Shown here: piece after piece, positions 39,458-55,471 of the stretch | How positions within the stretch are numbered: position 1 is the first letter of the stretch | How the letters are laid out: the number at the start of each line of letters is the position of its first letter | Assembly (NCBI RefSeq): GCF_003018235.1 | Contig: NZ_CP027437.1 | DNA from: Escherichia coli | GTDB lineage: Bacteria > Pseudomonadota > Gammaproteobacteria > Enterobacterales > Enterobacteriaceae | Direction: 5' to 3' (one strand) | Length of the DNA stretch: 64,000 bases | The notes under the pieces: model-generated | Told to the model about the DNA's origin: nothing | The model's database searches: none | The model's input: only the letters and a program-made list of their open reading frames with translations | Translations under genes and position numbers: made by a program

Positions 39458-39534
39458 GCGCCGTTAGCTCAGCTGGACAGAGCAATTGCCTTCTAAGCAA
39501 TCGGTCACTGGTTCGAATCCAGTATGGCGCACCA
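39458..39534 (+). tRNA. tRNA-Arg (anticodon UCU)
   Basis: Manual cloverleaf: acceptor GCGCCGT/ATGGCGC, D-arm GCTC..GAGC, anticodon loop CTTCTAA, T-arm ACTGG-TTCGAAT-CCAGT, CCA end. Confidence 0.85.
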
Positions 39535-39535
39535 T

Positions 39536-39610
39536 GCGGTCATCGTATAATGGCTATTACCTCGGCCTTCCAGGCTGATGATGCGGGTTCGATTCCAGCT
39601 GGCCGCTCCA
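39536..39610 (+). tRNA. tRNA-Gly (anticodon UCC)
   Basis: Manual cloverleaf: acceptor GCGGTCA/TGGCCGC, anticodon loop CTTCCAG, T-loop TTCGATT, CCA end; close to glyT tRNA as I recall it. Confidence 0.8.
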
Positions 39611-39768: not shown

Positions 39769-40321
39769 TATTTTTAGTATTTAGCCAGAGTGGCCCAAAC
39801 AGAAAATAAAGTTACTGTGAAACAGGGGGGCCTAATAAAAATAATCACCACTAAATTCGGGGCTTTAAAAATGCTAAGAACATCACATTTCATTATGCCG
39901 GGTACTGGAGAATAACATGATGTTTTGTTAAAAATGATTTTGCATGGTGAATCCCCCTGTGCGGCGGGGCATAATGACAGATGTTTGGTTGCGTATTGTA
40001 TAGGCAAGTTGCGGATTCTGTCTGGTCATTGCAGAATTCACCGGGAGGCACCCGGCACCATGCAGATAATTGTTTTGTGGATGATAATACCAGCCCCTCT
40101 CCGGAGGGGCTTTCTTATGGGCGAAAAAAAGCCCGGGGAGCCGGGCAATAGCATGAGATATACGTTTTTATAGACGTACAGATTTTAATCAGAATTTATG
40201 GGGCTGCGCAACTGCGTGGCCTTTTTTGTTTTGTGGGCTAAGGTTTTCCCCTTTGATTCGCCATGTGGCTGAACCTGTAGCCCGCCACTGTTCAGACGCA
40301 ATCCCGGCAAGGGGAGGAATA

Positions 40322-42349
40322 ATGGCATTTAAACACTACGATCTGGTCTCTGCCAGCAGCGGTGATGAACTGCAAAAGAAACTGACAGAAAAAATAAATG
40401 AAGGGTGGCAGCCATACGGTTCGCCGCTTGTTTCGTATGACGATAACGGGATGAAAATTATTCAGGCCATTGCAGCAGAGGGTGATGTCAGGATCCCGGT
40501 TGAAACGCCTGATGATGGTGGTGATTCACCGGTCACAATGACCTCCGGTGCACCTGATTATTATTATGTTGTTGTGCTTGCCGGACAGTCCAACGGCATG
40601 GCCTACGGTGAGGGGCTTCCGTTACCGGACTCTTATGACCGCCCGGACCCGCGCATTAAACAGCTGGCACGCCGCAGTACAGTGACGCCGGGTGGGGACG
40701 CCTGTGCATACAATGATGTGATTCCGGCTGACCATTGTCTGCATGATGTACAGGATATGAGCGGTGTTAATCATCCGAAAGCGGACCTGAATAAGGGGCA
40801 GTATGGCTGTGTCAGTCAGGGGCTGCATATTGCCAAAAAACTGCTGTCGTATATCCCGCAGAATGCAGGGATACTTCTGGTGCCCTGCTGCCGTGGTGGT
40901 TCTGCATTCACCACCGGGGCTGACGGCACATTCAGTGAGGTCACCGGCGCATCCGCTGACGCTGCACGCTGGGGTGCCGGTAAACCCCTGTATCAGGACA
41001 TGGTCAGCCGGACAAAAGCGGCGCTGGCCAAGAACCCGAAAAACAGGCTGCTGGCGGTGGTATGGATGCAGGGCGAGGCAGACCTTGCGTCAGGCAGTCA
41101 GCAGCATAACGGGTTATTCACGGCCATGGTTCAGCAGTTCCGGACTGACCTGTCCTCACTTGCTGCGCAGTGCGTGAGTGGCAATGCTGCCACGGTGCCG
41201 TGGATTTGTGGTGATACCACGTATTACTGGAAGGCCACTTATGGCACACAGTATGAAGCCATTTATGGAGCCTATAAGAATCTGTCCGCACAGAATATTT
41301 TCTTTGTACCGTTCCTGACAGATGAAAACGGCGCAAACACGCCAACGAACCAGCCAGCGGAAGACCCGGATATTGTGGCTGTGGGGTATTACGGTGCGGC
41401 ATCACGAACACAGGCGAACTGGACGACAGCGCAACGTGACAGCCATTTCAGCACCTGGGCGCGTCGCGGCATCATTTCTGACCGCCTTGCGTCAGCTATT
41501 CTGGTGCACGCGGGACGTACGTCAGGTTTCATTACCGGTGAAGTTTCTTCTCCGGACACTGCATCCGGTGACGGTGGTTCGTCCACTGATGCGGGTACGG
41601 ATGCGGGGACCGGCACTTCCGGAACAGGAAGTGATGACGCTACCGGAACGACACCAGCCACCGCTGCCATTATTCTGAGTGCAGACGGAGGGGATGTTTC
41701 GGCACAGGGCTGGACGGTGGAAGGCACCACGGTGACCACCACGGCAAACACGGTGACTTCATCGGGTGAGGCGCTGGCGCAGAATGTGCTGAGTGTTCCG
41801 AAACAGAGCGGGGCAGCATGGAAGCTTGTTCATACCACCACAGATGAGCCAGCGGAACTGCTGAACAATGGCGGTGAGTTCCTGTGTCGTTTCCGTATCA
41901 CGGATACTGCCATTGCTGAGGGGCGTTATGCCTTTGGTCTTTACTGGCTTCCGGACGCACAGAAGATACCAGCCGGTGCGACATTCAATAAAACAGGAAG
42001 CGGGATGTCCCCGTCCATGCTCAACTTCTATGTCCAGACGGATGGCAGCAACATAAACCTGTTATCACACTGCAGTACGAAGAGTGCAGGGAATCTGAAG
42101 ATTGGCTCATTCGGTGCATTTAACAATGAATGGCATACCTTCCGTCTTCGCTACCATGGTGGCAATACGGCAAGAGCAACGGTGACGCTGGACAGTCAGG
42201 TGGTGGGAGATATAACGCTGTTATGTGCGCCGTCAGCGGCCAGTGCCGGTGACACTCTGTCGATGATAAGTATCACATCGGGTGATACATACAGTATTGA
42301 AGTGGAAAGCCTGAGTGTGACGGTGAACGGGGCTGCGGCAGCGGCGTGA
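40322..42349 (+). CDS. Prophage-type sialate O-acetylesterase-like protein (nanS-p-like)
   Basis: GGGGAGG SD; N-terminal MAFKHYDLV... domain then VVLAGQSNGMAYGEG esterase-like segment; located between tRNAs and holin as in Stx-type lambdoid prophages (recollection). Confidence 0.55.
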   Translation: MAFKHYDLVSASSGDELQKKLTEKINEGWQPYGSPLVSYDDNGMKIIQAIAAEGDVRIPVETPDDGGDSPVTMTSGAPDYYYVVVLAGQSNGMAYGEGLPLPDSYDRPDPRIKQLARRSTVTPGGDACAYNDVIPADHCLHDVQDMSGVNHPKADLNKGQYGCVSQGLHIAKKLLSYIPQNAGILLVPCCRGGSAFTTGADGTFSEVTGASADAARWGAGKPLYQDMVSRTKAALAKNPKNRLLAVVWMQGEADLASGSQQHNGLFTAMVQQFRTDLSSLAAQCVSGNAATVPWICGDTTYYWKATYGTQYEAIYGAYKNLSAQNIFFVPFLTDENGANTPTNQPAEDPDIVAVGYYGAASRTQANWTTAQRDSHFSTWARRGIISDRLASAILVHAGRTSGFITGEVSSPDTASGDGGSSTDAGTDAGTGTSGTGSDDATGTTPATAAIILSADGGDVSAQGWTVEGTTVTTTANTVTSSGEALAQNVLSVPKQSGAAWKLVHTTTDEPAELLNNGGEFLCRFRITDTAIAEGRYAFGLYWLPDAQKIPAGATFNKTGSGMSPSMLNFYVQTDGSNINLLSHCSTKSAGNLKIGSFGAFNNEWHTFRLRYHGGNTARATVTLDSQVVGDITLLCAPSAASAGDTLSMISITSGDTYSIEVESLSVTVNGAAAAA

Positions 42350-45970: not shown

Positions 45971-46447
45971 ATGGACGGCGAGCTGAAAAATATGAAGTTC
46001 AATATTAATCAACTGGCATTCCTTTCAGGCCTGCACCGGCAGACTGTTGCCGCCAGAATGGCGGATGTTCCTCTTGCGCCAGGCAGTAATGAAAAGAAAA
46101 AACTTTATCTCCTGACGGATTTGATTAGTTCGTTACTGGAAAAACCACCCTCTTCCGAAGATGAGGAGATGGATCCACACGATCGCAAGGCATGGTATCA
46201 GTCCGAGCGCGAGCGCCTTAAATTTCAGCATGAAACTGTTCAGCTTGTGCCCGTCAGTGATGTCAGGCGGTCGTTTTCCGTCGTGGTGAAAGCCATTGTG
46301 CAGATACTGGAAACCTGGCCTGACAGGCTGGAAAGGGACAGGGGGTGGACTGCATCACAACTGAACGAAGTGCAGATCGTTGTTGATGAGATCCGTGACA
46401 CGCTGGAAAAGGCAGTGATTGCCTGCTGTGATGAGGCCGATATGTGA
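45971..46447 (+). CDS. Terminase small subunit (Nu1-like, N-terminal wHTH)
   Basis: GGAGGAGG SD; MKFNINQLAFLSGLHRQTVAARM resembles the lambda Nu1 N-terminus; precedes large terminase. Confidence 0.7.
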   Translation: MDGELKNMKFNINQLAFLSGLHRQTVAARMADVPLAPGSNEKKKLYLLTDLISSLLEKPPSSEDEEMDPHDRKAWYQSERERLKFQHETVQLVPVSDVRRSFSVVVKAIVQILETWPDRLERDRGWTASQLNEVQIVVDEIRDTLEKAVIACCDEADM

Positions 46448-48567
46448 ATCAGGTGAACGAGAGCCACAGCCGCGCATCAGATATCTGGCGCGAAGTGGCC
46501 TCACTGTTTCGCCCACCAGGCCGGTTACCTGTGGCGGAAGCCATCAGGCGTTACATGCGGGTACCACGGGGAGCCAATACTTCCGGTCCGTGGGAGTCAT
46601 CGCTGACGCCCTACATGATTGACCCCATTAATACATTATCAGCCCGTGAATATGACGCGGTGGTGTTTGTGGGACCGGCGCGAACCGGGAAAACCGAAGG
46701 GCTGATTGATGGCTGGATTGTGTATGGCATTATCTGCGATCCGGCGGATATGCTGGTGGTGCAGATGACCGAAACAAAGGCGCGGGAGCATTCCAGAACG
46801 CGTCTTTCCAGGACATTTCGTCACAGTCCGGAGGTCAGTAAACGCCTCAGCCCTTCCCGTAATGACAACAACGTCCACGATAAAATGTTTCTTGACGGCT
46901 CCTTTCTGAAAATTGGCTGGCCGTCGATCACCGTATTTTCCTCCTCAGATTACCGCCGGGTGGCGCTGACGGACTATGACCGTTTTCCTGAGAACGTCGA
47001 CGGTGAAGGGGATGCCTTCACGCTGGCATCAAAGCGTACCACCACCTTTATGTCCTCAGGGATGACCCTGGTCGAAAGTTCACCCGGGCGGGATATCACC
47101 GACACCAAATGGCGATGTGGTGGTGCACATGAGGCTCCGCCAACAACGGGGATCCTGTCGCTGTATAACCGGGGAGACCGCCGCCGGTGGTACTGGCCGT
47201 GTCCGCACTGCGGGGAATATTTTCAGCCGGTGATGGATAACATGACCGGTTACCGTAATAACCCAGATTTTGTGGCTGCGGGTCAGGCTGCCCGTCTGAT
47301 GTGTCCGCACTGTCGCGGGCTGATTGCTCCGGAACAGAAACGCGAACTGAATAACAGGGGGATCTGGCTGCGGGAAGGTGAACGGGCGGCGGCGGACGGC
47401 AGCATCACCGGAACGCCACGAAATTCCAGGATTGCGTCATTCTGGATGGAGGGTCCGGCTGCGGCGTTTCAGACCTGGGAACAACTGATTTTTAAGCTGC
47501 TGGCGGCAGAAGAAGAGTATGAGCGAACCGGCAGTGAAGAGACCCTGAAAGCGGTGGTGAATACCGATATCGGACGGCCTTATCTGCCCCGTTCAGCCAC
47601 GGAACAGCGTAAAAGTGAACTGCTTGAACAGCGTGCTGAGCCGGTTCCCCGGCGGTGTGTGCCGGATGGGGTGCGCTTCATTGAGGCAACGGTTGACGTA
47701 CAGGGCGGTAAAAACCGCCGGTTTGTGGTGCAGATCACCGGATATGGAGAGCAGGGGGAACGCTGGATTGTTGATCGCTACAACATCCGGCAATCACTGC
47801 GATGCAGTCCCGGTGGTGAGAGCCTGCCGGTTGATCCGGCGGCCTATCCGGAAGACTGGGAACTGTTGCTGACAGATGTGTTTCACAAAACCTGGCCGCT
47901 GGCGTCTGATCCGGATGTGCATATGCGGCTCATGGCGATGGCCGTGGATACGGGCGGTGAAGCCGGGGTGACGGATAACGCCTATCGTTTCTGGCGGCAG
48001 TGCCGCCGGGAAGGGCTGGGTAACCGGGTGTTTCTGTTCAAGGGGGATGGTCTTCGTCGCGACAGACTGATTAACCGGACATTCCCGGATAACACCGGCA
48101 GAAGCGCCCGCCGGGCCAGGGCGAGCGGTGACGTTGCCCTGTGGCTGGTACAGACCGATGCGTTTAAGGACCGGGTGAATAATGCGCTGTGGCGTGACAC
48201 ACCGGGGCCGAACTATATCCACTTTCCTGACTGGCTGGGACGGTGGTTTTTCGATGAGCTGACCTATGAGGAGCGCGGCAGTGACGGAAAATGGCGAAAA
48301 CCGGGCAGAGGCGCTAACGAAGCGTTTGACCTGCTGGTCTATGCGGATGCGCTTGCCGTTCTGCATGGCTACGAGAAGATACGCTGGCCGTCTGCACCGG
48401 ACTGGGCGCAGCGGGAAACATGGCTTGTCGGTCCGGAGGAGCGTTCAGGGCTGACAACATCACGGGCGCTGCCGGAAAGGAAAGAAAAACGCCGTCGCAG
48501 GCAGGAAAAACTGCGCGCAGAGCGGGCAGAGGATAATCCGTGGATAACATCAGGAGGCTGGTTGTGA
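46444..48567 (+). CDS. Terminase large subunit (lambda gpA family)
   Basis: 707 aa; Walker A-like GPARTGKT; CPHCGEYF zinc motif as in lambda A. Confidence 0.9.
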   Translation: MNQVNESHSRASDIWREVASLFRPPGRLPVAEAIRRYMRVPRGANTSGPWESSLTPYMIDPINTLSAREYDAVVFVGPARTGKTEGLIDGWIVYGIICDPADMLVVQMTETKAREHSRTRLSRTFRHSPEVSKRLSPSRNDNNVHDKMFLDGSFLKIGWPSITVFSSSDYRRVALTDYDRFPENVDGEGDAFTLASKRTTTFMSSGMTLVESSPGRDITDTKWRCGGAHEAPPTTGILSLYNRGDRRRWYWPCPHCGEYFQPVMDNMTGYRNNPDFVAAGQAARLMCPHCRGLIAPEQKRELNNRGIWLREGERAAADGSITGTPRNSRIASFWMEGPAAAFQTWEQLIFKLLAAEEEYERTGSEETLKAVVNTDIGRPYLPRSATEQRKSELLEQRAEPVPRRCVPDGVRFIEATVDVQGGKNRRFVVQITGYGEQGERWIVDRYNIRQSLRCSPGGESLPVDPAAYPEDWELLLTDVFHKTWPLASDPDVHMRLMAMAVDTGGEAGVTDNAYRFWRQCRREGLGNRVFLFKGDGLRRDRLINRTFPDNTGRSARRARASGDVALWLVQTDAFKDRVNNALWRDTPGPNYIHFPDWLGRWFFDELTYEERGSDGKWRKPGRGANEAFDLLVYADALAVLHGYEKIRWPSAPDWAQRETWLVGPEERSGLTTSRALPERKEKRRRRQEKLRAERAEDNPWITSGGWL

Positions 48568-48776
48568 GTATTGATGATGTCAGGAACATGATACAGCGGT
48601 ACCGCGATGCGGAAATGGCGGTACTGGAAGGAAAATCCGTCACATTTAACGGGCAGCAACTGACGCTGGAAAGTCTGTCCCAGATCCGCGCCGGTCGGCA
48701 GGAGTGGGAGCGAAGACTTACGGCGATGGAGAACCGCAGACGGGGGAGTCCGGGGTTTAAACTGGTGAGGTTCTGA
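48564..48776 (+). CDS. W: Head-tail joining protein gpW-like
   Basis: ~70 aa ending ...RRRGSPGF, similar to the lambda W C-terminus; GTG start overlapping terminase stop. Confidence 0.7.
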   Translation: MSIDDVRNMIQRYRDAEMAVLEGKSVTFNGQQLTLESLSQIRAGRQEWERRLTAMENRRRGSPGFKLVRF

Positions 48777-50278
48777 TGGCGATTAGTGATGATGTGATTG
48801 GTTTTTTCTCGCCCGGCTGGAAAGCGGCGCGATTACGCTCAAGGGCGTTAATTATGGCCTATGAGGCCGTGAAACCCACCCGCACGCACAAAGCCCGGCG
48901 GGAAAACCGTTCTGCCGATCAGCTCAGTAAATACGGTGCGGTTTCCCTGCGCGAGCAGGCCCGCTTTCTGGATATCAATCATGACCTGGTGATAGGCGTG
49001 TTTGACAAGCTGGAGGAGCGGGTGATTGGCGCCAGGGGGATCACCGTTGAACCTCATCCGGTGCTGAAAAACGGGAAGATTGCGGCGGAGCTGGCAGCGG
49101 ATATCCGGCGGCTGTGGGCGGAATGGTCTGTCAGTCCGGATGTGACCGGACAGTACACCCGTCCCATGCTTGAACGTCTGCTGCTGCGCACCTGGCTGCG
49201 GGACGGGGAAGTGTTTGCGCAGATGGTCAGTGGTGCGGCAGGCGGTCTTAAGCGGTCTGCCGGTGTGCCTTTCTGGCTTGAGGCGATGGAGCCGGATTTT
49301 GTGCCCATGCGCAGTGATGAATCTGCCGGACTGAATCAGGGCGTTTTTCTGGATGAGTGGGGCAGGCCGAAAAAATATCTGGTTTACAAAAATTATCCGG
49401 TTTCCGGGATACAGAGTGATACCAAAGAGATCGCCGCAGACAATATGGTGCACCTGAAGTTCACCCGTCGCCTGCACCAGACGCGTGGCACATCCATGCT
49501 GTCAGGGGTGCTGATGCGGATCAGTGCGCTTAAGGAATATGAAGACGCCGAGCTGACTTCGGCACGTGTTGCGGCGGCGCTGGGGCTGTATATCCGTAAA
49601 GGGGACGGACAGGACTATGAAGATCCGGGGGTGAAAGACAACGAACGTGAAGTGCATATCACCCCGGGCATTATCTATGACGATTTGCGCAAGGGTGAGG
49701 ATATCGGCATGGTCAAATCAGACCGTCCGAATCCCAATCTTGAGAATTTTCGTAACGGCCAGCTGCGTGCGGTGGCGGCAGGCAGTCGTCTGAGCTTTTC
49801 CAGTGCGGCGCGCAACTACAACGGCACCTACAGTGCCCAGCGGCAGGAGCTGGTGGAGTCCACCGATGGTTATTTTATCCTTCAGGACTGCTTTATTGGC
49901 GCGGTAACCCGTCCGGTATACCGGGCATGGCTGAATATGGCGGTTGCGGCAGGTCTGCTGAAAATCCCGACTGGCCTGGATATGAAGACGTTATATAACG
50001 CGACGTATTCCGGTCCGGTGATGCCGTGGATTGACCCGGTTAAGGAAGCTGAAGCCTGGCGGATACAGATCAGGGGTGGTGCCGCGACGGAATCCGACTG
50101 GATCCGCGCAAGCGGGCGCAACCCGGATGAGGTCAAACGTCGCCGTAAGGCTGAAACTGATGAAAACCGCAGGCTGGGGCTGGTCTTTGATACTGACCCC
50201 GTCAACGACAAAGGAGGCAACAGTGCCGGAACTGAACAACAGCGTCAGCAGGCCACCGACAGCCAGCATGAAGAATAA
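48776..50278 (+). CDS. B: Portal protein (lambda B family)
   Basis: 500 aa; position between W and the protease/capsid gene. Confidence 0.85.
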   Translation: MAISDDVIGFFSPGWKAARLRSRALIMAYEAVKPTRTHKARRENRSADQLSKYGAVSLREQARFLDINHDLVIGVFDKLEERVIGARGITVEPHPVLKNGKIAAELAADIRRLWAEWSVSPDVTGQYTRPMLERLLLRTWLRDGEVFAQMVSGAAGGLKRSAGVPFWLEAMEPDFVPMRSDESAGLNQGVFLDEWGRPKKYLVYKNYPVSGIQSDTKEIAADNMVHLKFTRRLHQTRGTSMLSGVLMRISALKEYEDAELTSARVAAALGLYIRKGDGQDYEDPGVKDNEREVHITPGIIYDDLRKGEDIGMVKSDRPNPNLENFRNGQLRAVAAGSRLSFSSAARNYNGTYSAQRQELVESTDGYFILQDCFIGAVTRPVYRAWLNMAVAAGLLKIPTGLDMKTLYNATYSGPVMPWIDPVKEAEAWRIQIRGGAATESDWIRASGRNPDEVKRRRKAETDENRRLGLVFDTDPVNDKGGNSAGTEQQRQQATDSQHEE

Positions 50279-52238
50279 ATCCTGGTTCAGGATGCAGGCG
50301 GGTGGTCAGGGTGAGGCGGATATTTATATTTATGACGAGATTGGTTTCTGGGGGGTTACGGCGAAGCAGTTTATCAGTGATCTGAATGCGCTTGGCGACA
50401 TCACCCACATTAATCTCCATATCAATTCACCGGGTGGCGAGGTCTTTGAAGGCATCGCCATTTTTAATACCCTCAGAAATCACGGTGCAGGCATTACCGT
50501 GTATGTGGACGGGGTTGCCGCGTCGATGGCATCCCTGATTGCGATGGCCGGTGACACGGTCATTATGCCGGAAAATGCCTTCATGATGATCCATAAGCCC
50601 TGGGGGATCAGCGGTGGTGACGCGGAGAAAATGCGCACTTATGCCGATCGCCTCGACAAACTTGAGTCGGTTATGGTGCCGGTATATGCGCAGAAAACCG
50701 GGAAAACCACCGATGAAATTGCTGCCATGCTGGCGGATGAGACCTGGATGTCCGGTGCGGAATGTCTGGCACACGGATTTGCAGACCAGGTGACGCCAGC
50801 CGTTAAGGCAATGGCATGTATTCAGTCAAAACGTACAGAGGAATTTAAAAAGATGCCGGAATCCATCAGAAATATGATCACACAACCGTCTGACCGTACC
50901 CCGCGTGAGGCGACCACCACACAGGCAGTCACAGAACCCGCCCCGGCACCGGCAGCGCCAGATGAGGAGACCATCCGGGCCAGTGTACTGGCGGAGCAGA
51001 AGGCCCGTATGTCAGGCATTAACGATCTGTTTGCCATGTTTGGTGGTCGTTATCAGGCACTTCATGCGCAGTGTGTGGCCGATCCCGGCTGCTCGCTGGA
51101 GATGGCCCGAGAGCGTCTGCTGAATGAAATGGGTAAGGAGTCCTCGCCGACTAACAAAACCACACCGGCACATATTTATGCCGGAAACGGTAATTTTGTG
51201 GGTGACGGGATCCGTCAGGCGCTGATGGCCCGCGCCGGATTTGAGACTACGGAGAAGGATAATGCCTATAACGGGATGACCCTGCGTGAATGCGCCCGCA
51301 TGTCACTGACGGAGCGGGGGATCGGGGTGGCCAGTTACAACCCCATGCAGATGGTGGGGCTGGCGCTGACGCACAGCACCTCGGATTTTGGCAATATCCT
51401 GCTGGATGTGTCGAATAAGGGACTGATTCAGGGCTGGGAGGAATCAGAGGAAACCTTCCAGAAATGGACCCGCAAAGGTCGCCTGTCTGACTTCAAAACG
51501 GCATACCGTGTGGGGATGGGGGGCTTTGGTTCACTGCGTCAGGTGCGCGAAGGGGCAGAGTACAAGTACATCACCACCTCAGACCGCAGGGAAACCATCG
51601 CGCTGGCGACCTACGGGGAAATTTTCTCCATCACCCGTCAGGCCATTATCAATGATGACCTGAATATGCTGGTGGATGTCCCGATGAAGATGGGGCGTGC
51701 CGCGAAGGCAACGATTGGTGACCTGGTGTATGACGTGCTGACAAAAAATCCGAAACTGTCAGACGGCAAGGCGCTGTTCCATGCCGATCACCAGAATATT
51801 GCCACCGGCGGGATCTCCGTTTCCGGTCTGGATGCGGCACGTCAGATGATGCGTCTGCAGAAGGAGGGGAATCGTGCACTGAATATCCGTCCGGCCTTCA
51901 TGCTGGTACCGGTGGCGCTGGAGACGGTGGCAAACCAGACCATCAAATCGGCCAGTGTGAAAGGGGCGGATGCGAATGCCGGTGTCATTAACCCGATTCA
52001 GAACTTTGCCGAAGTGATTGCGGAAGCGCGTCTTGATGCGGCAGATCCGAAAACCTGGTATCTGGCGGCGGCACAGGGGACCGATACGATAGAAGTGGCC
52101 TGGCTGGATGGTGTGGACACGCCGTATATTGATCAGCAGGAAGGCTTCACCACTGACGGTATCGCCACAAAAATCCGTATTGATGCCGGTGTGGCACCGC
52201 TTGACTGGCGCGGACTGGTACGATCATCTGCTGCCTGA
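50268..52238 (+). CDS. Prohead protease (ClpP/S14-like) fused to major capsid protein
   Basis: N-terminal INSPGGEVFEGIAIFNTLR...MASLIAMAGD ClpP-like; ~400-aa C-terminal capsid domain; start at internal ATG 50268 overlapping portal stop. Confidence 0.8.
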   Translation: MKNKSWFRMQAGGQGEADIYIYDEIGFWGVTAKQFISDLNALGDITHINLHINSPGGEVFEGIAIFNTLRNHGAGITVYVDGVAASMASLIAMAGDTVIMPENAFMMIHKPWGISGGDAEKMRTYADRLDKLESVMVPVYAQKTGKTTDEIAAMLADETWMSGAECLAHGFADQVTPAVKAMACIQSKRTEEFKKMPESIRNMITQPSDRTPREATTTQAVTEPAPAPAAPDEETIRASVLAEQKARMSGINDLFAMFGGRYQALHAQCVADPGCSLEMARERLLNEMGKESSPTNKTTPAHIYAGNGNFVGDGIRQALMARAGFETTEKDNAYNGMTLRECARMSLTERGIGVASYNPMQMVGLALTHSTSDFGNILLDVSNKGLIQGWEESEETFQKWTRKGRLSDFKTAYRVGMGGFGSLRQVREGAEYKYITTSDRRETIALATYGEIFSITRQAIINDDLNMLVDVPMKMGRAAKATIGDLVYDVLTKNPKLSDGKALFHADHQNIATGGISVSGLDAARQMMRLQKEGNRALNIRPAFMLVPVALETVANQTIKSASVKGADANAGVINPIQNFAEVIAEARLDAADPKTWYLAAAQGTDTIEVAWLDGVDTPYIDQQEGFTTDGIATKIRIDAGVAPLDWRGLVRSSAA

Positions 52239-52325
52239 TAACCGGCCCGACACAATCACTGCCCGTAAGGGCTTTTTTTATGCCTGAAAACAGCCCCGCC
52301 GGGGGCTGTCCGGAGATACAGCATT

Positions 52326-52652
52326 ATGGCGAAAAATTTTGTACAGGACGGCACCACCATTGAACTGGTGAATGCCGGGGATCAGACCATTCTGAGCGGT
52401 GCCGCTGTGGTGGTCGGCAGCATGGTGGCGGTGGCCATTACCGATATTCCTGCCGGGGAAACCGGTGACGGGTTCGCAGAAGGCGTGTTCCTGCTGCCAA
52501 AACAGTCAGTTGATGATATTCCGCAGGGGACGGTGGTTTATCTGAAGGATGGCCTTGTGCAGCCTGCGGCGGATGGTGCAGTGGCGGCAGGGGTGGCATG
52601 GGAACATGCGACGGCAGGCAGCGACACAGTGGCGGTCAGAATCAATGCCTGA
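52326..52652 (+). CDS. Small head protein (FI/decoration position)
   Basis: 108 aa, Ala/Gly/Val-rich; directly after capsid gene. Confidence 0.5.
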   Translation: MAKNFVQDGTTIELVNAGDQTILSGAAVVVGSMVAVAITDIPAGETGDGFAEGVFLLPKQSVDDIPQGTVVYLKDGLVQPAADGAVAAGVAWEHATAGSDTVAVRINA

Positions 52653-52926
52653 TTTGCTTTCACGGATGTGCCGCCATATGGATCTGGCGACGGTGCGCAT
52701 GATGGGAAAAACGGCGGAGATTAACGGCGTCAGTTATGACGTGATACCGGAGTATGAGTCCGCTGATATGGGGGCGCTTTCCGGCAGTCAGTTGTCACTG
52801 GTGGTGTTTTCAGCGCAGTACCGGCCTGCCCGCGATGATGTGGTTGTGTTTGACGGTCGCTCACTGGTGGTGACCCGTTATGACACTTACAACGGTAAAC
52901 CCCGGATTTTTGTCGAACAGGAGTAA
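52645..52926 (+). CDS. Head-tail connector protein, gpFII-like
   Basis: Internal ATG overlapping previous stop; 93 aa; position before Z. Confidence 0.5.
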   Translation: MPDLLSRMCRHMDLATVRMMGKTAEINGVSYDVIPEYESADMGALSGSQLSLVVFSAQYRPARDDVVVFDGRSLVVTRYDTYNGKPRIFVEQE

Positions 52927-54746: not shown

Positions 54747-55163
54747 ATGTTTCTGAAAACGGAACCGTTTGAATATAACGGGCAGACTGTCACGCTCAGC
54801 GAACTGTCCGCCCTGCAGCGCCTCGAGTATCTGGCCTGGGTGAAGGAGAAGGAAGAACAGCGGGGGGAGGGTGTCAGTGAACAGCAGGCGCTCACTGACA
54901 TCATCAGCGAAGGTGCCCTGCTGGTGGCCATGTCGCTCTGGCATCACCATGAGCTGAACGGAGCGTCATCCTCACTGCGTGAAGAGACGGACAGGCTCAT
55001 GCAGGAAGTCCTGACCTCCTGGCCGGTGGAAGCCATCGCCGCAGGCCGGAACGTGGTGGCACGTCTGAGTGGTATGTCGGCTCCGGCAGGTGAAAAATCC
55101 CCCGCTCAGGGGGGTAAAACAGACGAACCGGTAACGGCAAAAAAGCGTACGAAGGGGAGCTGA
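54747..55163 (+). CDS. G: Tail assembly chaperone gpG
   Basis: MFLKTEPFEYNGQTVTLSELSALQRLEYLA... like lambda G. Confidence 0.85.
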   Translation: MFLKTEPFEYNGQTVTLSELSALQRLEYLAWVKEKEEQRGEGVSEQQALTDIISEGALLVAMSLWHHHELNGASSSLREETDRLMQEVLTSWPVEAIAAGRNVVARLSGMSAPAGEKSPAQGGKTDEPVTAKKRTKGS

Positions 55164-55471
55164 TTTTTGCCCTGCAACTGGCGCGCGAGATGGGCCGTCC
55201 TGACTGGCGTGCCATGCTGGCCGGGATGTCATCAACCGAGTATTCCGACTGGCGTCATTTTTACCGCACGCATTATTTTCAGGATGCACAACTGGATATG
55301 CATTTTGCCGGGCTGACGTATGCCGTACTCAGCCTGTTTTTTGCCGATCCTGATATGAGTCCGTCTGATTTCAGCCTGCTGAACCGGCGTGGTGCTGAAG
55401 AAGAGCCTGAAGATGATGTGCTGATGTCGGTATCAGAAGGTATAGCAGGAGGTGTCCGCTATGGCGGGTAA
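54747..55471 (+). CDS. T: Tail assembly chaperone gpG-T fusion via programmed -1 ribosomal frameshift at A_AAA_AAG (55139-55145)
   Basis: Slippery heptamer in G frame near G 3' end; T reading frame (frame 2) open from the site to 55471. Confidence 0.75.

Follow-up and report, generated by a model that had tools for sequence, protein, structure and literature searches.

A protease-scaffold-capsid fusion gene of the Gifsy-2 type in an Escherichia coli prophage and its candidate internal translation start

In phage lambda, the head protease and scaffold (C/Nu3) and the major capsid protein (E) are encoded by separate genes, as correctly stated in an earlier note on the DNA analyzed here, whereas this DNA, a stretch of 64,000 nucleotides (nt) from Escherichia coli (assembly GCF_003018235.1, contig NZ_CP027437.1; hereafter the window), contains a single open reading frame (ORF) of 656 amino acids (aa) that the same note described as a fusion of a ClpP-like prohead protease with the major capsid protein. 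The locus raises the question of what kind of gene this is and whether it gives rise to one product or to two. As shown below, the gene is very likely a 'tripartite' capsid gene of the Gifsy-2 type, carried by a lambdoid prophage of enterobacteria. The fusion architecture as such is already known from a curated NCBI family, a PHROG and published descriptions, a status that the earlier note overlooked together with the central scaffold segment of the protein; what the present analysis adds is limited to a refinement of the start codon and a probable nested second product.

The ORF runs uninterrupted and intact on the plus strand from the ATG at 50268 to the stop codon at 52236-52238, and both motifs quoted in the earlier note, INSPGGEVFEGIAIFNT and MASLIAMAGD, are found in it. 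Within this single chain, Pfam detects CLP_protease at aa 31-176 (E value 1.8e-36) and Phage_capsid_4 at aa 358-653 (E value 5.2e-57), with Mu-like_gpT as an additional, weaker match. The NCBIfam model NF045540, named 'ClpP-like prohead protease/major capsid protein fusion protein', matches with 996.3 bits (E value 7.7e-300; curated cutoff, 475 bits), aligning aa 17-654 of the protein with positions 2-651 of the 652 in the profile, and PHROG 133 matches with 1137 bits. The NF045540 and Pfam matches are far beyond chance and confirm that a ClpP/S14-type protease domain and an HK97-fold capsid domain are encoded in one frame.

Neither a stop codon nor a frameshift separates the two domains. By megablast, 2070 of the 5426 complete E. 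coli genomes contain the gene, and the same open frame is present in the 1936 genomes with no less than 80% of its length matched; among all matches listed, the PGAP product name is that of NF045540, and a 98.3%-identical E. coli copy in RefSeq is annotated with the same start and stop as the 656-aa ORF. The protein is 94% identical to that of phage CP-1639, and the DNA is 98% identical to a prophage of E. coli O158:H23. The fusion gene is also present in Stx2 phages, mEp460, LLS/mEp213-like phages and Pseudomonas F10/MD8-like phages, with an uninterrupted frame in 80 phage records, and a scan of viral contigs yielded at least 576 relatives. The Gifsy-2 gene is 61% identical end to end over 668 aligned positions. 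Such a fusion was reportedly first described by Effantin et al. in 2010 (Virology 402:355), as the 'tripartite capsid gene' of the Salmonella phage Gifsy-2. In a passage of PMC12315714 that cites Effantin et al. 2010, the prohead protease and coat genes of Gifsy-2 are described as fused, and in Pseudomonas phage MD8 the protease, scaffold and major capsid protein have been read as one gene, gp5, of 693 aa (PMC8508860). The Gifsy-2 capsid is T=7 (PMC8814770), and its cement protein is trimeric (PMC8538268).

The start codon chosen by PGAP and in the earlier note, ATG 50268, is not preceded by a ribosome-binding site, and the frame is open upstream of it; 45 nt further upstream lies an in-frame GTG, at 50223, which is preceded by the almost perfect Shine-Dalgarno (SD) sequence AAAGGAGG with a 5-nt spacer. 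A GTG start with AAGGAGG, AGGAGG or AAGGAG located 5-6 nt upstream is found in approximately 55 of the 62 distinct upstream regions of relatives, and phage mEp460 has CCG where ATG 50268 would be and retains the GTG with its SD sequence. Given the conservation of the SD sequence and the GTG, along with the lack of an equivalent of ATG 50268 in mEp460, the true start is probably GTG 50223, with a predicted product of 671 aa and a gene whose first 56 nt would lie within the portal gene, which stops at 50278. Records of this gene family in public databases disagree on the start position, of which at least four are in use. Residues are numbered below according to the 656-aa ORF, that is, the number in the 671-aa chain minus 15, unless indicated otherwise.

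An AlphaFold2 model of the 671-aa chain, built from 43 homologues, consists (671 numbering) of a confidently predicted ClpP-like domain at 20-195, a disordered region at 196-246, helices at 248-306 and the capsid domain from about 320 to the end. The N-terminal protease domain scores 221 bits against NF045542, and its model matches ClpP structures in Foldseek with an E value of 1e-12 and a template modelling score of about 0.7. With the full-length model, Foldseek returned ClpP matches only, the capsid domain being masked, so the part from Met196 to the end was modelled separately; for this model, the matches listed were all HK97-fold shells, with a probability of 1.0 (including encapsulins, the JBD30 procapsid, NF5 and P4). 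A profile of the same part detects the solved Mu-GpT-domain capsid proteins 8rkx and 8rkc with an E value of 8e-10; the profile was needed for this, as a single-sequence search of the PDB sequences matched ClpP and no capsid structures. The profile of the whole family aligns weakly with aa 19-194 of lambda Nu3 (20 bits) and also with Mu T. Given the weak alignment with Nu3, the central helices of the model appear to be a Nu3-like scaffold, as the authors of the MD8 study proposed (PMC8508860), and the protease-scaffold part as a whole is probably a distant homologue of lambda C/Nu3.

Whether this gene encodes a second product depends on a candidate internal start, the ATG of Met196, which is located exactly at the boundary between the protease domain and the linker, with GAGGA 10 nt upstream. 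Translation from this codon would yield a scaffold-capsid protein of 461 aa with a calculated mass of 50.0 kDa. An internal ATG with AGGA or AGGAG 9-10 nt upstream is also found in Gifsy-2, CP-1639, mEp460 and a Pseudomonas phage. The ClpP-type family was represented by an alignment of 74 unique coding sequences, which are related to each other, so the counts are not counts of independent events. The codon of Met196 is ATG in 74 of the 74 sequences, and all 74 contain an SD core 4-12 nt upstream of it, compared with a background of 9% of in-frame positions. Glu191 is encoded by GAG in each of the 66 sequences in which it occurs (the 8 sequences with Gln at this position have CAG), and Lys188 by AAA in 72 of 72; of the 118 columns that are conserved and two-fold degenerate, no others are restricted to a single codon, and the other 15 conserved Glu columns all mix GAA and GAG. 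Synonymous-site entropy reaches its gene-wide minimum at aa 185-197 (0.31 vs a mean of 0.73), and the region of the internal start is unpaired in the local minimum free energy fold.

A second fusion family, of the NF045541 type, in which the N-terminal protease has no similarity to ClpP, was represented by 76 unique sequences, one of them from Rhodobacter phage RcBaka (L088-L167; L007:2896-2898). The aligned Met is invariant here as well (76/76), whereas the linker around it varies and the peptide before it exists in 38 versions. The SD-like sequence ahead of this codon reads AAAGGAGG, ACGAGGA, AAAGGAA or CGGAGG, in most cases at a distance of 5-8 nt; an SD core is found 4-12 nt upstream in all 76 sequences, and the Met column shows the strongest mean anti-SD pairing of the 638 columns. 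In the joint alignment of both families, the Met is invariant throughout. Given that the ATG is invariant, that the SD core accompanies it in both families without exception and that the synonymous sites around it are frozen, we lean, by a modest degree of confidence, toward the interpretation that this is a nested two-product gene that would yield a full-length chain and, from ATG 50853, a protease-less scaffold-capsid protein. In the RcBaka-type family, the strong internal SD sequence suggests such a nested product too. Because the internal start is conserved in two families with unrelated proteases, it might be a start of the lambda C/Nu3 and Mu I/Z type that was kept through the fusion of the capsid gene.

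The possibility of -1 frameshifting at TTTAAAAAG, immediately 5' of the internal ATG, was considered and rejected, since the heptamer neither fits the X XXY YYZ frame nor is conserved, most relatives having GAAAAG. Two candidates for stand-alone scaffold-capsid genes starting at the conserved Met, from Bordetella PBb002 and Pseudomonas Solano, were inspected, and both turned out to be full fusions. The literature searched, Effantin et al. 2010 excepted, contained no report of an internal start in, or a second product from, protease-capsid fusion genes.

The principal alternative is a single-product polyprotein, such that all subunits are full-length and the ATG with its purine-rich stretch reflects constraint at the protein level, for instance from the last helix of the protease or a cleavage motif. 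Several observations weigh against a nested product: the SD-like element of the ClpP-type family is weak (GAGGA) and located 10 nt from the ATG, Met122, which is conserved as well, shows SD-like pairing just as good, and the peptide SKRxEEFxxMP around Met196 is itself conserved in this family, so constraint on the protein explains part of the signal. The published descriptions, in the case of PMC12315714 the passage mentioned above, name one product only (PMC8508860, PMC12315714). As for the protease that only the longer product would carry, the position of the catalytic Asp of ClpP is aligned with Glu159 (Asp158 being adjacent), which makes the third member of the triad uncertain. Against a single product stands the choice among synonymous codons, which at Glu191 and Lys188, and only in these 2 of the 118 columns, is fixed precisely where the synonymous entropy of the gene is lowest, as does the second family, where the upstream peptide varies and yet the SD core and the ATG are always there. 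A single product thus appears quite possible but is not the reading we prefer. The likelihood that the gene encodes only a protease and a scaffold, with the capsid protein encoded elsewhere, is very low: many GenBank records, among them those of CP-1639, Stx2 phages and PhiR phages, do use names such as 'protease/scaffold protein' and 'Nu3', but the last 350 aa form a Mu gpT-like capsid protein of the HK97 fold and there is no further capsid-like ORF between the portal and the tail genes. Even less credence, indeed next to none, can be given to an artefact or a pseudogene, that is, to a frameshift or a stop loss that joined two separate genes in one genome; nothing except the unusual length speaks for it, in the face of the same open frame in the 1936 E. 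coli genomes, the 80 phage records and hundreds of viral contigs, and of curated hidden Markov models for the full-length fusion.

The remaining alternative, a recent mosaic that arose by recombination of a foreign ClpP-capsid cassette into the head genes of lambda, beside portal and terminase genes of the lambda type, is related to the 'mosaic head module' of the earlier note and is judged from the neighboring genes (Table 1). Upstream of the fusion gene are genes for a DUF1441 protein in the position of the small terminase, a GpA-type large terminase, a small W-like protein and a lambda-family portal; downstream are those for a Phage_cement_2 protein, a Gifsy-2-family adaptor and homologues of Z, U, V and G. 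The 'lambda-like' portal and terminase of the earlier note are so at the level of Pfam families (PF05136 and GpA-type), but their identity to lambda B and A is only about 23%: the large terminase is 67% identical to that of Gifsy-2 vs 24% to lambda A, and the portal 63% vs 23% to lambda B, level with the 61% of the fusion protein, for which the comparison with lambda is not applicable. The W-like protein is 56% identical to its Gifsy-2 counterpart and the cement protein 51%, the latter with no match in lambda. Hence every head protein matches Gifsy-2 best, at 51-67%, and the order terminase-W-portal-fusion-cement is that of Gifsy-2; the order terminase-W-portal-fusion-decoration is preserved in Pseudomonas and Rhodobacter phages, and the adjacency of portal and fusion in a Bordetella phage. 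The lambda-type head set, with a separate E-type capsid gene and an S49 protease, is not what is found here, the capsid being fused and the protease S14-like. For Z, U, V and G, the identities are 29, 55, 54 and 34% to Gifsy-2 vs 54, 54, 72 and 50% to lambda. This lambda affinity of the tail, at 50-72%, and the Pfam families of the portal and terminase are what the mosaic scenario can draw on, and we regard it as very unlikely. Given the collinearity of the head genes with Gifsy-2 and the presence of the same portal-fusion-decoration block in phages of E. coli, Salmonella, Pseudomonas, Rhodobacter and Bordetella, these genes appear to be an old, co-inherited module of the Gifsy-2 type and not a new junction, and the description as a mosaic head module does not hold. 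With Z, U, V and G closer to lambda and the head proteins closer to Gifsy-2, the mosaic joint relative to Gifsy-2 appears to sit between head and tail and not beside the fusion gene.

Table 1. Coordinates of the fusion gene, its parts and neighboring features in the window (residues in 656-aa numbering unless stated).
Feature	Coordinates	Strand	Basis or remarks
Large terminase, GpA type	46444..48567	+	PF05876 and PF20454
Portal protein, lambda family	48776..50278	+	PF05136, E value 6e-80
SD sequence AAAGGAGG of GTG 50223	50210..50217	+	Sequence read; conserved in relatives
Probable full protease-scaffold-capsid gene, start GTG 50223	50223..52238	+	671 aa, 72.8 kDa
ORF as reported in the earlier note and by PGAP in near-identical genomes	50268..52238	+	656 aa, 71.2 kDa
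ClpP-like (S14) prohead protease domain	50316..50807	+	aa 17-180; Pfam CLP_protease, NF045542
Catalytic Ser86	50523-50525	+	In GVAASMA; aligned to solved ClpP chains
Catalytic His109	50592-50594	+	In MIHKP; aligned to solved ClpP chains
Disordered Pro/Thr/Ala-rich linker	50808..50960	+	aa 181-231; AlphaFold2 predicted local distance difference test (pLDDT) <50; sequence variable among relatives
Candidate internal SD core GAGGA (codons Glu191-Glu192)	50838..50842	+	Fixed codon choice, low synonymous entropy
Invariant in-frame ATG, candidate internal start (Met196; Met211 of 671)	50853..50855	+	Conservation
Helical scaffold-like segment	50964..51140	+	aa 233-291; AlphaFold2 helices; distantly Nu3-similar
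Major capsid domain, HK97 fold, Mu gpT-like	51180..52235	+	aa 305-656; Pfam core 358-653
Terminator-like short GC hairpin GCCC-GUAA-GGGC followed by U7, just 3' of the stop codon	52261..52279	+	Fold
Head decoration (cement) protein, 108 aa	52326..52652	+	PF09956 Phage_cement_2

By analogy with Gifsy-2, HK97, lambda and Mu, a T=7 procapsid would form on the lambda-family portal as the capsid domains assemble together, their scaffold and protease segments facing its interior; the enclosed protease would then cut off all that precedes the capsid domain in the chain, and the shell would expand during DNA packaging, upon which trimers of the cement protein would bind and stabilize it. The autoproteolytic maturation proposed in the earlier note is the accepted reading for the fusion family and, on these analogies, is likely to apply here as well. 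With two products, a full-length chain from GTG 50223 and the scaffold-capsid protein from the internal ATG, the protease would be carried by only a fraction of the subunits, as in lambda C/Nu3 and Mu I/Z.

Among the known systems, the E. coli members of NF045540/PHROG 133 (CP-1639, Stx2, mEp460, LLS and mEp213) share the product name and an identical gene order with the gene described here and differ in nothing of substance, apart from the discordance of public annotations on the start codon and the name. Gifsy-2 (STM1034.3n) likewise encodes a ClpP-like protease, a central segment of about 200 aa and the capsid protein among matching neighbors, and has an internal ATG with the SD sequence AGGAG at 9 nt; it differs in that the annotated start is an ATG there, as opposed to GTG 50223 at the equivalent position here, and in that the tail genes of the present prophage are nearer to lambda, the fusion gene being an allelic variant in an Escherichia prophage. 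MD8 gp5 and its F10-like relatives are approximately 57-60% identical and have an internal Met-Pro with AGGAG upstream, in a Pseudomonas host with a different GC content; the first Glu of EEF is replaced by Gln (CAG) in these phages, which still gives AGGAG. The NF045541-type fusions, such as RcBaka gp10, have homologous scaffold and capsid parts (about 34% identity; 421 bits over aa 206-654), the same portal-fusion-decoration order and an internal Met that aligns between the families, but their N-terminal protease is not ClpP-like and their internal SD sequence is much stronger, for instance AAAGGAGG or ACGAGGA at 5 nt.

Lambda C/Nu3 and Mu I/Z also encode the protease and the scaffold in one frame, with the scaffold made additionally from an internal in-frame start; the central segment of the fusion aligns weakly with Nu3 and the capsid domain with Mu T, and lambda, too, uses a trimeric cement protein. 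In both phages, however, the capsid protein is the product of a separate gene, and in lambda the protease belongs to S49, in contrast to S14 here, and E has no sequence similarity to the capsid domain (E value 0.98). In HK97, the protease is encoded by a separate gene and belongs to another family (S78/U35). The scaffold of HK97 (the delta domain of gp5) is N-terminal on an HK97-fold capsid protein and is removed by the encapsidated protease gp4, so that the putative 461-aa internal product would resemble HK97 gp5; the HK97 shell is cross-linked, whereas a cement protein is present here, a contrast drawn in PMC8538268.

Downstream of the fusion gene, a rho-independent terminator is annotated in mEp460 at the position equivalent to the hairpin at 52261-52279, and a second, stronger hairpin follows at approximately 52290-52309. 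A scan for promoter and terminator consensus sequences had no more hits inside the gene than expected from shuffled sequence and did not detect the hairpin at 52261-52279. The hairpins after the capsid gene could reduce transcription of the decoration and tail genes that follow. Next to the cement gene, a small ORF (52645-52926) belongs to PF13856 'Gifsy-2', for which the Pfam text reads 'ATP-binding sugar transporter from pro-phage', and is named 'DNA breaking-rejoining protein' by PGAP in a near-identical E. coli genome; its position makes it a head-tail adaptor, and both database names look like misnomers. At 54747-55471, a lambda G-like tail chaperone ORF is followed by an overlapping T-like ORF, as is usual where G and GT are made by frameshifting; in a related E. 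coli genome, PGAP marks the T part as a pseudogene, which probably arises from the unmodelled frameshift.

In six viral contigs (L061, L063, L068, L075, L077 and L078), a copy of the fusion gene is truncated inside the protease domain; the copy in L063 starts at MMIHKP and has lost the catalytic Ser but retains the internal Met with its SD sequence. In four of these contigs (L061, L063, L075 and L077), another capsid gene, divergent from the first, is present with its 3' end about 2 kb upstream of the truncated copy. In L063, this arrangement occupies 13-258, 994-2267 and 2501-4156, and the gap contains two reverse-strand ORFs of 237 and 119 aa, neither of which was matched in Pfam and PADLOC scans. 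Such arrangements could represent rearranged or tandem prophages or something functional.

Elsewhere in the window, a transfer-messenger RNA gene (ssrA, tag peptide ANDENYALAA) is located on the minus strand at 4756-5118, and its presence identifies the left part of the window as enterobacterial chromosome. The phage-borne tRNA-Arg(tct) and tRNA-Gly(tcc) genes at 39458-39610 lie just upstream of an ORF of 707 aa (40226-42349); in a near-identical E. coli prophage, a DUF6645 protein comes after the tRNAs. We take this site to be the late-region position where Shiga toxin (Stx) phages carry tRNAs and toxin genes.

Given that over a third of the complete E. coli genomes contain the fusion gene, the fusion as described in the earlier note matters little in itself. 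Its practical value lies in annotation, as the public names are inconsistent (protease, scaffold, Nu3, capsid protein) and the annotated start codon is probably wrong in most records. If the second product is real, the internal start would set the ratio of protease to shell at the level of translation and would explain how the packing of approximately 415 proteases per procapsid is avoided despite the fusion of the protease to the shell protein; the gene would then be a simple, testable case in which nested translation controls the stoichiometry of capsid assembly.

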